A stretch of 64,000 nucleotides of DNA, taken from the IMG/VR virus record IMGVR_UViG_3300031521_000025, positions 1 through 64,000 of that record; one strand, 5' to 3'. Positions 23,808-25,407 of the stretch are shown piece after piece. The notes beneath the pieces were generated by a model. That model saw nothing but the letters and a program-made list of their open reading frames with translations. It was not told where the DNA came from and searched no databases. Numbering within the stretch: position 1 is the stretch's first letter; each line of letters starts with the position of its first letter. The DNA is from a virus. Made by a program: the position numbers and the translations under genes.

Positions 23808-23838
23808 TTGACAAAAAAAATAAAATAATTATATTTAA
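23808..23838 (+). promoter_or_regulatory. Putative promoter of the leader/tRNA transcript
   Basis: TTGACA (23808) followed by TATATT (23830) overlapping the recurrent ATATTTAA motif (23831). Confidence 0.5.
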
Positions 23839-23916: not shown

Positions 23917-23986
23917 TGTATGTAGTTATAATAACAATATAACAAACAAAAAACCCTAGGTTAGTAAAATAGCTTAGGGTTTTTTT
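23902..23986 (+). promoter_or_regulatory. Transcription attenuator (antiterminator/terminator) upstream of the tRNA cluster
   Basis: Terminator CCCTAGGTTA-GTAAAA-TAGCTTAGGG-T7 (23954-23986); TTACT/GACCTAG (23902-23916) can pair with CTAGGTT/AGTAA (23956-23967). Confidence 0.8.
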
Positions 23987-24009: not shown

Positions 24010-24094
24010 GGTTCAGTGTTGTAACTGGAAAGCCAAGACGGTTTTAAACGCCGTTGTCCTTTGAGGCGTGTGGGTTCGAGTCCCACCTGAACTA
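24010..24094 (+). tRNA. tRNA-Leu(TAA)
   Basis: Acceptor GGTTCAG/CTGAACT, anticodon arm ACGGT-TTTAAAC-GCCGT, long variable arm, GTTCGAG T-loop, A73; no encoded CCA. Confidence 0.9.
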
Positions 24095-24109
24095 CTTTTA
24101 TAAATTTAT

Positions 24110-24182
24110 GTCCGGTTCATATAGTTGGTTAGTATTCATGGTTTTCATCCATGCCACACGAGTTCGAATCTCGTACCGGGTA
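24110..24182 (+). tRNA. tRNA-Glu(TTC)
   Basis: Acceptor GTCCGGT/ACCGGGT, anticodon arm CATGG-TTTTCAT-CCATG, TTCGAAT T-loop. Confidence 0.88.
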
Positions 24183-24191
24183 CAAATAAAT

Positions 24192-24266
24192 GTCAGGTTA
24201 GTGTAATTGGCTAACACGTCTGGTTTTCATCCAGGAGATTACGGGTTCGATCCCCCGTACTTGATA
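24192..24266 (+). tRNA. tRNA-Glu(TTC), second copy
   Basis: Acceptor GTCAGGT/ACTTGAT, D stem GTGT/ACAC, arm TCTGG-TTTTCAT-CCAGG; one extra C in the T arm. Confidence 0.8.
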
Positions 24267-24275
24267 CAGTTAAAT

Positions 24276-24360
24276 GTCATAGTAGGCTAGCGGTCTAGGC
24301 AACAGACCTTCAATCTGTCTTCGAGAAATCGATTCGTGGGTTCGAATCCCATCTATGATA
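24276..24360 (+). tRNA. Atypical long-variable-arm tRNA with TTC anticodon (C33); identity uncertain
   Basis: Acceptor GTCATAG/CTATGAT, arm ACAGA-CCTTCAA-TCTGT, variable arm TCGA-GAAA-TCGA, GTGGG-TTCGAAT-CCCAT, A73. Confidence 0.75.
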
Positions 24361-24383
24361 CTAAAATAATTAAATAGTTATAT

Positions 24384-24456
24384 TGACTTATGATGTAATG
24401 GATAAGCATACAAAATTTTGAATTTTGTTGTCAAGGTTCGAATCCTTGTGAGTCAA
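24384..24456 (+). tRNA. tRNA-Gln(TTG)
   Basis: U1-A72 acceptor TGACTTA/TGAGTCA, arm CAAAA-TTTTGAA-TTTTG, TTCGAAT. Confidence 0.88.
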
Positions 24457-24567: not shown

Positions 24568-25407
24568 ATGAAAACTTGTTTAAAATGCAACAAAGAACAT
24601 AATGGATCTTTTGGGTCTGGAAACTATTGCTGCAAATCTTGTGCAAATAGTCATGTTAGAACTGATGAAAGCAAATTATTAACGTCAAAGTCAGTTAAGA
24701 ACAGTGAAAAGGTTATTCAAGCGGTAAAAGAAAGAAGCATCAAAAGAGAAGCTTTGAAAAAAAATAAAAAAACTATAGAAGAAAAATACCCTGATCGATC
24801 AAAAGTTTTTACTCAAAATAAAAAAGAAATTTTATTAAAAACACTAGAGTGGATTAATAATAAAAAGTCTTTAACTTATATATGTAATAAGTTAGAATGT
24901 AGTAGAAATACTTTAAAAAAATTTTTCAAAATAAATAAAATTATTTATAATGGAAACCAAGGAAACAAAGGAGTGTATGTAACAAACCCTTTGGTGGATA
25001 ACTTTAAAGGATCTATTGGTACAGTAAAACAAAGAATTAAAGATGAAAATTTATTAGATTATAGTAAATGTGGAGAGTGTGGAATAAAAGAATGGAATAA
25101 AAAAGAAATAGGTTTAGAACTACACCACAAAAACGGAAACAGAAAAGACAATAGATTAGAAAATTTAATTTACTTATGTCCTAATTGTCATTCACAAACC
25201 GATACTCATAGGGCTAAAAATAAAAAATATTTAAAAAAAATAACTTCAGAAGAACTTTTAGAAATATTAAAAAAAAGCAAAAGTATAAATGAAGCTTTAA
25301 AAGAAGCGAATATGAGTACATCTCAAACTAACTATGCAAGAGCTAAAAGACTTGTAAAAAAGTTTGAGCTATTTAAAGAAGATAACAACCCTTATAGTTT
25401 TAATTAA
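24568..25407 (+). CDS. HNH homing endonuclease
   Basis: CGECG...LELHHKNGNRKDNRLENLIYLCPNCHSQT; N-terminal Zn ribbon. Confidence 0.9.
   Translation: MKTCLKCNKEHNGSFGSGNYCCKSCANSHVRTDESKLLTSKSVKNSEKVIQAVKERSIKREALKKNKKTIEEKYPDRSKVFTQNKKEILLKTLEWINNKKSLTYICNKLECSRNTLKKFFKINKIIYNGNQGNKGVYVTNPLVDNFKGSIGTVKQRIKDENLLDYSKCGECGIKEWNKKEIGLELHHKNGNRKDNRLENLIYLCPNCHSQTDTHRAKNKKYLKKITSEELLEILKKSKSINEALKEANMSTSQTNYARAKRLVKKFELFKEDNNPYSFN

Follow-up and report, generated by a model that had tools for sequence, protein, structure and literature searches.

A phage tRNA with a long variable arm, a UUC anticodon and C33, most likely a carrier of glutamate

A long-arm tRNA gene in a phage tRNA cluster

We analysed a stretch of 64,000 nucleotides (nt), hereafter the window, which forms the first 64 kb of the IMG/VR virus record IMGVR_UViG_3300031521_000025 (111,457 bp; CheckV completeness 41%; GC content ~27%). 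Our subject is a transfer RNA (tRNA) gene at 24276-24360, the target tRNA of the target phage, which an earlier note made from the letters alone had singled out for its long variable arm, its glutamate (UUC) anticodon and a cytidine at position 33 (C33). The gene is the fourth in a cluster of five tRNA genes, identified with ARAGORN and Rfam and separated by intergenic gaps of 8-22 nt. A tRNA-Met gene is the sole further tRNA gene in the rest of the record, and the UUC anticodon is found in 3 of the 6 known tRNA genes of the phage. The cluster has the following layout.

24010..24456, + strand: tRNA cluster, five genes
24010-24094, + strand: cluster gene 1, tRNA-Leu(UAA)
24110-24182, + strand: cluster gene 2, normal-length tRNA with anticodon UUC, tRNA-Glu(UUC)
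24192-24266, + strand: cluster gene 3, normal-length tRNA with anticodon UUC, tRNA-Glu(UUC)
24276-24360, + strand: cluster gene 4, the target long-arm tRNA(UUC)
24384-24456, + strand: cluster gene 5, tRNA-Gln(UUG)

The target tRNA scores 44.8 bits against the Rfam tRNA family RF00005 (gathering threshold 29) with one non-canonical D-stem pair, compared with 42.0 bits for the cluster tRNA-Leu. The CCA end is not encoded in the gene; the bases after the discriminator are C-T-A. Its parts are listed below.

24276..24360, + strand: long-arm tRNA(UUC), 85 nt up to discriminator A73 (Rfam RF00005, family model R1 described below, ARAGORN detection)
24276..24282, + strand: acceptor stem 5' strand GUCAUAG, pairing with 24353-24359 at 7/7 positions, including G1.U72, U2-A71 and C3-G70
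24285..24300, + strand: D arm GGCU/AGCGGUCU/AGGC, with G11.G24 unpaired and the 3' strand one base short relative to relatives
24302..24318, + strand: anticodon arm, stem ACAGA/UCUGU paired at 5/5 positions, loop CCUUCAA at 24307-24313
24308, + strand: C33, read from the sequence
24309..24311, + strand: anticodon UUC, from the Rfam alignment and covariation in relatives
24319..24335, + strand: variable region of 17 nt, CU, stem UCGA, loop GAAA, stem UCGA, UUC, from sequence and folding
24336..24352, + strand: T arm GUGGG-UUCGAAU-CCCAU, the same sequence as in the nearest relative (L300)
24360, + strand: discriminator A73

Residues U8-A9 follow the acceptor stem and A26 precedes the anticodon stem. 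The acceptor/T-stem layout is the standard 7/5, and G18G19 and the T loop match the consensus. The loop is numbered C32 C33 U34 U35 C36 A37 A38. Thus, the cloverleaf that had been drawn from the sequence is present with all its features and is aligned in the same register by RF00005, and the loop CCUUCAA with its UUC anticodon and C33, the 17-nt variable arm with its GAAA loop, and A73 all stand. The same note had reported a G-G mismatch in the D stem. A defect does exist, since G11.G24 is unpaired, but its nature differs: aligned with 20 close relatives, the 3' strand of the target D stem reads GG-C, with a gap at column 25, where the relatives have GGYC. The mismatch is therefore best read, on this alignment, as a D stem of 4 bp whose 3' strand has lost one base, and the missing base explains both the apparent mismatch and the slide of ARAGORN described below. 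The D arm can alternatively be bracketed as GGCU-AGCGGUCU(A)-(A)GGC, which is of the Glu type, and a 3-bp D stem is still possible. Variable arms of relatives finish in (A/G)UUC or CUC.

The anticodon is UUC

ARAGORN calls the target tRNA Leu(CAA). Were this correct, the gene would encode an ordinary class II tRNA-Leu that reads UUG, and the target and the cluster tRNA-Leu(UAA) do share an 85-nt length and the same anticodon index, with A73 in the target. The fold, however, is costly. It moves the D stem by one base, creating a G10:A26 mismatch, inserts a 2-nt spacer before the anticodon stem, leaves a C.U mismatch at the loop-closing pair and places a pyrimidine (U) at position 37. Infernal with the Rfam covariance model rejects this register in favour of the stem ACAGA/UCUGU enclosing the loop CCUUCAA. 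The CAA fold is also less stable in ViennaRNA (-17.6 kcal/mol versus -19.2 kcal/mol for the UUC register), with pair probabilities of about 0.03 versus about 0.61-0.69.

The relatives described in the next section gave the same answer. In an alignment of the target tRNA with 26 of them (27 sequences), the anticodon stem of the UUC register is 99.3% paired, with compensatory changes at 5/5 pairs, whereas pairing drops to 49.6% in the stem of the CAA register, whose closing pair is formed by 0/27 sequences. When tRNAs bearing CCTTCAA were picked by the D arm alone, 40/40 formed 5/5 pairs in the UUC register, so the result is not an artefact of how relatives were chosen. ARAGORN itself calls every relative Glu(ttc). 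Moreover, UUG, the codon read by a CAA anticodon, is rare in the target phage (7.7 per 1000 codons). We conclude that the target anticodon is UUC and that position 33 is C; a tRNA-Leu(CAA) is very improbable. A shifted anticodon UCA (opal or selenocysteine-like loop CUUCAAU) was rejected by hand, as its flanks are unpaired in that register, and a reverse-strand reading (loop UUGAAGG, Phe GAA) was rejected on the T-loop and D-loop consensus of the + strand. The Leu(CAA) label means that automatic annotation of such phages misstates their tRNA repertoire.

A class of long-arm phage tRNAs with a UUC anticodon

Searches for close kin gave little. No kin were found in viral contigs via the flanking baseplate wedge protein and helicase genes, an exact 22-mer of the target anticodon arm had no match, and cultured phages had no match to the tRNA cluster or the target tRNA. 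A family member compared with cultured phages matched over only 31 nt, in the T arm of a roseophage tRNA-Ser. Relatives were therefore gathered with degenerate DNA patterns that placed the anticodon loop at long-arm distance from the T loop. With the C33 loop, viral contigs yielded 21 well-formed tRNAs and metagenomes about 25; the pattern for the U33 loop CUUUCAA returned 53 tRNAs (44 unique), giving 70 unique long-arm UUC tRNAs altogether. In one genome for each of 185,579 prokaryotic species, the C33-form pattern had 10 hits, 0 of them with full acceptor and anticodon stems. The class thus appears to be phage-borne. Its members are placed within tRNA arrays, usually after tRNA-Asp and adjoining a normal tRNA-Glu. 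The arrays come from large uncultured phages, and a transfer-messenger RNA (tmRNA) gene is present in some of these as well.

A covariance model built from 26 members with the window left out (R1) scored the target tRNA at 66.5 bits (E 1.5e-16), and the other window tRNAs at 37.3, 35.1 and 31.8 bits. We use the long-arm tRNA-Glu(UUC) class as an operational definition of this analysis. The target tRNA has the 7/5 cloverleaf, the 5-bp anticodon stem, the 7-nt loop C-Y-U-U-C-A-A, the hairpin variable arm, A73 and the neighbourhood of further Glu tRNAs in a phage tRNA cluster that mark the class; it lacks the intact 4-bp D stem, which is found in 20/20 relatives. In the literature, our search, of incomplete coverage, found no description of a long-arm phage tRNA-Glu or of C33 in phage tRNAs. 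The class is apparently widespread, restricted to phages and undescribed.

Two subtypes and the placement of the target tRNA

The D arms divide the 70 unique sequences, and C33 is distributed unevenly between the groups.

Glu-type D arm: 30 with U33, 1 with C33 (L224), plus the target tRNA
Tyr-type D arm: 6 with U33, 24 with C33
Other D arm: 9 with U33, 0 with C33

To judge by sequence, the sister subtype is one with a Tyr-type D arm and a variable arm that also matches tRNA-Tyr. A scan blind to the anticodon, made with UAUACAARYGG..AAAGUR as the D-arm signature, found the following loops.

CCUUCAA: 22 tRNAs, anticodon UUC, C33
CUGUAAA: 7 tRNAs, true tRNA-Tyr(GUA)
CUCAUAA: 4 long-arm tRNAs, anticodon CAU
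UUCUCAA: 2 tRNAs, anticodon CUC
CUUUCAA: 2 tRNAs, anticodon UUC, U33

The CUCAUAA-loop tRNAs (loci L089, L118, L153 and L189) combine a Tyr-type D arm with an anticodon of the Met, Ile2 or initiator type, and in some of them the 1-72 pair is odd or mismatched.

The target tRNA falls in the Glu-type subtype. Its 8-26 segment is most similar to that of short phage tRNA-Glu (best 0.55, median 0.40), followed by Ser (0.50), Tyr (0.45) and Leu (0.39, median 0.12). Profile scores with the anticodon loop masked were 20.2 bits for Ser, 18.3 bits for Tyr and 11.7 bits for Leu, while pairwise matches over the whole sequence did not separate Leu, Tyr and Ser. The body had been called Leu-like in the earlier note, a description that these comparisons do not support, Leu being lowest in both profile score and D-arm similarity. 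A Tyr-derived body, which we also considered for the target, was dropped because its D arm is of the Glu type; this derivation holds for the sister subtype only.

The nearest relative, L300, shares 83.5% identity and the T arm with the target tRNA; its loop is CUUUCAA (U33) and its D arm, GGCU-AGCGGUCUA-GGCC, has an intact 4-bp stem. At three pairs of the acceptor stem and one of the anticodon stem, both bases differ between the two in a compensatory way, which indicates that the structure has been under selection along the lineage of the target. In the alignment of the target tRNA with 20 relatives that have a Glu-type D arm (21 sequences), the cloverleaf is 99.1% paired (97.8% in the 27-sequence alignment), and the covariation score is 0.62, compared with 0.18 in shuffled alignments, 0/500 of which reached 0.62. 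Both U13.G22 and G1.U72 are present in 19/21 sequences.

C33 in phage tRNAs

U33 is conserved in elongator tRNAs, with two exceptions named in a review: many eukaryotic initiators have C33, and Candida tRNA-Ser(CAG) has G33 (PMC5041475). C33 is rare in the Glu-type subtype (2/32, L224 and the target), so that it is a derived change in the target, and it is the norm in the Tyr-type subtype (24/30), where the structure is under covariation, which makes it compatible with function. C33 also occurs in short tRNA-Glu genes, with the loops CCUUCAA (L013) and CCCUCAA (L052), and in ~20 of ~410 non-Glu tRNAs of the fetched arrays, nearly always as C32-C33 or U32-C33. This frequency seems far higher than that in cellular tRNAs. 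On these sequences, C33 is tolerated and recurrent in these phages. The non-Glu examples include Tyr (CCGUAAA), Val (CCUACAW), Ile, Phe, Leu, Pro and others, and G33 was seen in three Thr(GGU), one Ser(CGA) and one Gln(UUG) tRNA. Three CUC tRNAs with a Tyr-type long-arm body have U33 (L046:1236-1320, L005:5374-5462 and L028:3983-4071; loops CUCUCAA and UUCUCAA). In this body C33 seems to accompany U34, not C34.

Amino acid identity

Identity in E. coli tRNA-Glu is set by U34, U35, C36, A37, U2-A71, U11-A24, the U13-G22:A46 triple and a lack of residue 47, along with the mnm5s2U34 modification (PMC9976931). The target tRNA keeps the four strong anticodon-loop determinants of glutamyl-tRNA synthetase (GluRS), U34, U35, C36 and A37, together with U2-A71. 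It also has the G1.U72 and A73 end that is found in 24/28 short phage tRNA-Glu genes, whereas true tRNA-Tyr genes of phage arrays have G1-C72 in 22/24 cases, and tRNA-Ser genes have G73 in 9/13 and A73 never. At four loci, L323 (22 tRNAs, nearly one per amino acid), L315, L224 and L220, the fetched locus has no Glu tRNA other than a long-arm UUC tRNA, and a separate tRNA-Tyr is present in each. Other long-arm tRNAs of the arrays bear end marks of their own (A1-U72 and G73 in Trp, G73 in Asp, U1-A72 in Gln), which suggests a general pattern of a tRNA's own identity plus an added arm. Taken together, these comparisons make glutamate the most likely amino acid of the target tRNA.

Leucine would be the least likely, as among the three class II types it is Leu that the target resembles least in the profile and D-arm tests. 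A Leu anticodon (NAG or YAA) is absent, with CAA seen only in the register of ARAGORN. A73 and a long variable arm are present, as expected for Leu, but they do not discriminate, because Tyr and the present class share them. Tests for Tyr found A73 and U35, and neither G34, G1-C72 nor a Tyr-type D arm. The earlier note had reasoned from the confinement of long arms to tRNAs for Leu, Ser, Tyr and Sec (selenocysteine), a rule that the present class breaks, and had offered three possibilities: Leu insertion at GAA, a decoy for an anticodon nuclease, or a nuclease-resistant tRNA-Glu. Insertion of Leu finds no support, given the lowest Leu profile and D-arm similarity and the Glu(UUC) calls of the relatives. 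A variant tRNA-Glu, possibly resistant to nucleases, appears to fit best.

Proposed role and competing explanations

GAA is the second commonest codon of the target phage (68.1 per 1000), and UUA (60.4 per 1000) and CAA (28.1 per 1000) are served by the cluster tRNA-Leu(UAA) and tRNA-Gln(UUG). tRNA-Glu(UUC) has been documented as a target of immunity: it is among the preferred targets of target-activated Cas13a (LshCas13a, PMC11042736). Phage tRNAs with altered loops have been proposed or shown to escape anticodon nucleases, as in work on phage tRNAs and tRNA-targeting defences (van den Berg 2023, PMC10264068), on T5 tRNA-Tyr and the retron PtuAB (PMC11555353) and on T5 tRNA-Lys and PARIS (PMC11464382). 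A spare, differently shaped Glu decoder is thus an attractive reading by analogy.

We consider it probable that the target is a working, or recently working, phage-specific long-arm tRNA-Glu(UUC) that decodes GAA and is most likely charged with glutamate. The gene would be transcribed together with the four other cluster tRNAs, and host enzymes would process the transcript and add CCA. Charged with glutamate, the tRNA would decode GAA and probably also GAG. The long arm would be an inherited trait of the class, and no sign of Leu identity, and C33 a derived change of the kind that seems to have arisen repeatedly in phage tRNA-Glu. Arm and C33 together may present an altered shape and loop to host anticodon nucleases or wobble-modifying enzymes, leaving the phage with a Glu decoder that survives an attack on tRNA-Glu during infection.

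Several observations count against this account. The core determinants of GluRS are poorly preserved: a 17-nt arm stands in place of a missing residue 47, the 11-24 pair is defective, and the U13-G22:A46 triple is not assertable in the target, where U13.G22 could form only in a shifted D register. No GluRS, TyrRS/TrpRS (tyrosyl- and tryptophanyl-tRNA synthetase), CCA-adding enzyme or RtcB was found in the 111-kb record, which is 41% complete. A search of the record for Rnl1 gave no match, although the control for Rnl1 likewise matched nowhere. The commonest loop of short phage tRNA-Glu is the U-rich UUUUCAU, and in the one tRNA-Glu anticodon nuclease with published data on position 33, gamma-toxin, a U33C change left cleavage of the tRNA-Glu stem-loop unchanged (PMC2275089). 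These last two points leave a general logic of fewer U residues and less cleavage without support, and the gamma-toxin result speaks against taking protection by C33 from tRNA-Glu nucleases as established. A73 and U35 are moreover critical Tyr determinants, and bacterial tRNA-Tyr is itself long-armed (PMC9976931), so some tyrosylation of the target may occur. The remaining points concern decay: among the 21 Glu-type sequences the D-stem gap is seen only in the target and C33 only in the target and L224, and two tRNA(UUC) genes lie directly upstream (24110-24182 and 24192-24266), which implies redundancy.

These last observations would be expected of a decaying, redundant copy, a former long-arm tRNA-Glu with two lesions (U33 to C and the lost D-stem base) and poor or no function beside its two neighbours. 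The nearest relative keeps both U33 and the 4-bp D stem, and the D-stem defect suffices to make ARAGORN misfold the gene. Yet the other helices are intact (7/7, 5/5, 5/5 and the 4-bp variable stem), G18G19 and the T loop keep the consensus, the scores on R1 and Rfam are high, the latter above that of the cluster tRNA-Leu, and the double substitutions relative to L300 are compensatory. A 3-bp D stem can form, and C33 is not disabling in itself, being the norm of the sister subtype. Open reading frames (ORFs) of at least 150 amino acids cover ~83% of the record, a density that speaks against frequent indel errors, an indel-prone assembly or general decay. We regard decay as unlikely, although mild decay may have set in.

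Deliberate mischarging, in which TyrRS (or leucyl-tRNA synthetase, LeuRS) would load Tyr or Leu for GAA codons on the strength of the long arm, A73 and U35, is a highly unlikely alternative. LeuRS and seryl-tRNA synthetase do not read the anticodon, which favours it, as do the Tyr determinants just named and the Tyr-type D and variable arms of the sister subtype. A precedent is Candida tRNA-Ser(CAG) with G33 (PMC5041475). Against this, the target has a Glu-type D arm, not a Tyr- or Leu-type one, the lowest profile score for Leu, no G34, and G1.U72 in place of the G1-C72 of true tRNA-Tyr. In several arrays no Glu tRNA was seen beyond a member of the class, and tRNA-Tyr has a gene of its own; mischarging there would mistranslate the commonest codons, and with GAA at 6.8% of the codons of the target phage, a substitution across the proteome would be very costly.

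A more specific proposal, which extends the preferred account of a Glu-charged decoder and which we hold to be unlikely and put forward tentatively, is that C33, ahead of U34, has been selected repeatedly as an escape change. It would have arisen independently in long-arm Tyr-type, long-arm Glu-type and short bodies and, together with the arm, would stop a host enzyme that reads U33-U34 or a class I shape. This enzyme could be an anticodon nuclease, or belong to the machinery that modifies the wobble uridine and that such nucleases need; the tRNA would still be charged with Glu and decode GAA. If true, the phage would possess an elongator tRNA naturally proof against nucleases, in violation of two textbook invariants together. 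Reported effects of U33C vary from system to system: in a yeast suppressor tRNA it abolished both its Elongator-dependent U34 modification and its suppressor function (PMC11096365); neither this enzyme nor gamma-toxin is bacterial. A purine at position 38, which the target has (A38), cut gamma-toxin cleavage by at least 90% (PMC2275089).

The yeast result also bears on the possibility of a decoy, a look-alike of tRNA-Glu that would absorb or inhibit an enzyme of the host, be it an anticodon nuclease or a modification enzyme, and that ribosomes, its U-turn being weakened by C33, would rarely use. U33 matters to the architecture of the anticodon loop (PMC5041475), half of the known tRNA genes of the phage carry UUC, and tRNA-Glu(UUC) is a known nuclease target. 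However, the class, C33 members included, holds the only Glu slot in L224 and L220, which is impossible for a pure decoy, and its acceptor stem and discriminator are conserved as in charged tRNAs. A non-decoding decoy is thus improbable.

Neighbouring genes and other unusual tRNAs

The genes near the cluster include those for a baseplate wedge protein, a helicase and an HNH endonuclease. Three features flank the cluster closely.

23808-23835, + strand: sigma-70-like promoter match TTGACA-16-TATATT (11/12), a short distance 5' of the cluster
23948-23985, + strand: terminator-like 16-bp hairpin followed by a T run, between the promoter match and the tRNA cluster
24568-25407, + strand: HNH endonuclease ORF of 279 amino acids (PHROG HNH families, E about 1e-22), ~110 bp 3' of the cluster

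The location of the HNH ORF is typical for a homing endonuclease. The two normal-length tRNA(UUC) genes of the cluster both have G1.U72, A73 and the loop UUUUCAU. The second of them (24192-24266) contains one additional T-loop base, placed as an insert by Infernal, and its D-arm segment scores highest with Leu (0.57, versus 0.48 with Glu).

The related phage arrays contain further long-arm tRNA genes, so Glu is not the only class I anticodon to be joined with a long arm.

L013:3592-3677: Val(UAC)
L013:5017-5100: Trp(CCA)
L004:13096-13183: Asp(GUC)
L049:11046-11129: Gln(UUG)
L081:14-108: Pro(UGG)
L052:7518-7598: Cys(GCA)
L007:4089-4174: Phe(GAA)

In a huge-phage array, ARAGORN found a tRNA with an 8-nt anticodon loop and the four-base anticodon CCAA (L047:4556-4638), and a tRNA with a similar body is called Asp(GUC) with an odd loop (L081:5018-5100). 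The L005 contig, which also carries long-arm Glu(UUC) and Glu(CUC) genes, encodes a tRNA with anticodon CUA, of the amber-suppressor type and labelled Pyl by ARAGORN (L005:516-588); it may point to stop-codon recoding in that phage. Phage tmRNA genes lie inside or beside tRNA arrays (L004:8579-8929, L049:3987-4358, L054:8226-8576 and L058:6101-6460), and their tag peptide is conserved and starts AEDIMSIPTSLT.

Comparison with known systems and significance

Canonical class I tRNA-Glu(UUC) shares with the target tRNA the UUC anticodon with A37 and U2-A71, and with its subtype the Glu-type D arm with U13.G22. The G1.U72/A73 end is that of the short tRNA-Glu of the same phages, and A38 is also found in the tRNA-Glu of phage Sf14 (loop CUUUCAA, PMC12482277). 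Unlike the target, with its 17-nt hairpin arm, C33 and defective 11-24 pair, canonical tRNA-Glu has a 4-nt variable loop without residue 47 and U33. Bacterial class II tRNAs (Tyr, Leu, Ser) have the same long arm with a short stem and tetraloop, and those for Tyr and Leu also A73; the likeness to tRNA-Tyr in D arm and variable-arm design concerns the sister subtype, not the target. The target differs from them in its class I anticodon, in a D arm that is not of the Tyr, Leu or Ser type, and in G1.U72 in place of G1-C72.

Candida tRNA-Ser(CAG) likewise combines a long-arm body with an anticodon foreign to such bodies and a residue other than U33 (PMC5041475). It has kept Ser identity with a reassigned codon and has G33, whereas the target has C33, and its acceptor end, D arm and array position point to Glu. 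The allo-tRNAs with 8/4 or 9/3 acceptor/T-stem layouts (Mukai et al. 2017, PMC5389517) are also non-standard long-arm tRNAs with many anticodons from metagenomes and phages. The target, with its 7/5 layout, is unlike them. Nematode nev-tRNAs, which are eukaryotic, have class II bodies with Gly or Ile anticodons and are charged with Leu; they share the long arm with a class I anticodon, and the target differs in showing no sign of Leu identity. Like the phage tRNAs that escape defences, the target is a phage isoacceptor with a loop unlike the host type, of a tRNA species that is attacked (Cas13a cuts tRNA-Glu). It departs from them in a change at the near-invariant position 33 plus a whole extra arm, and U33C gave no protection from gamma-toxin (PMC2275089).

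Two rules are treated as near-universal in tRNAs: long arms occur only in those for Leu, Ser, Tyr and Sec, and elongators have U33. The target tRNA and its ~70 relatives break the first, and about a third of them also break the second, in a set that is restricted to phages and under clear structural selection. If the target is charged with glutamate, GluRS would tolerate a tRNA core far from the E. coli identity set, which bears on tRNA engineering and on identity prediction in metagenomes. If arm and C33 protect the tRNA from tRNA-cutting defences, they would amount to a counter-defence of a new type and could supply tRNA scaffolds that resist nucleases.

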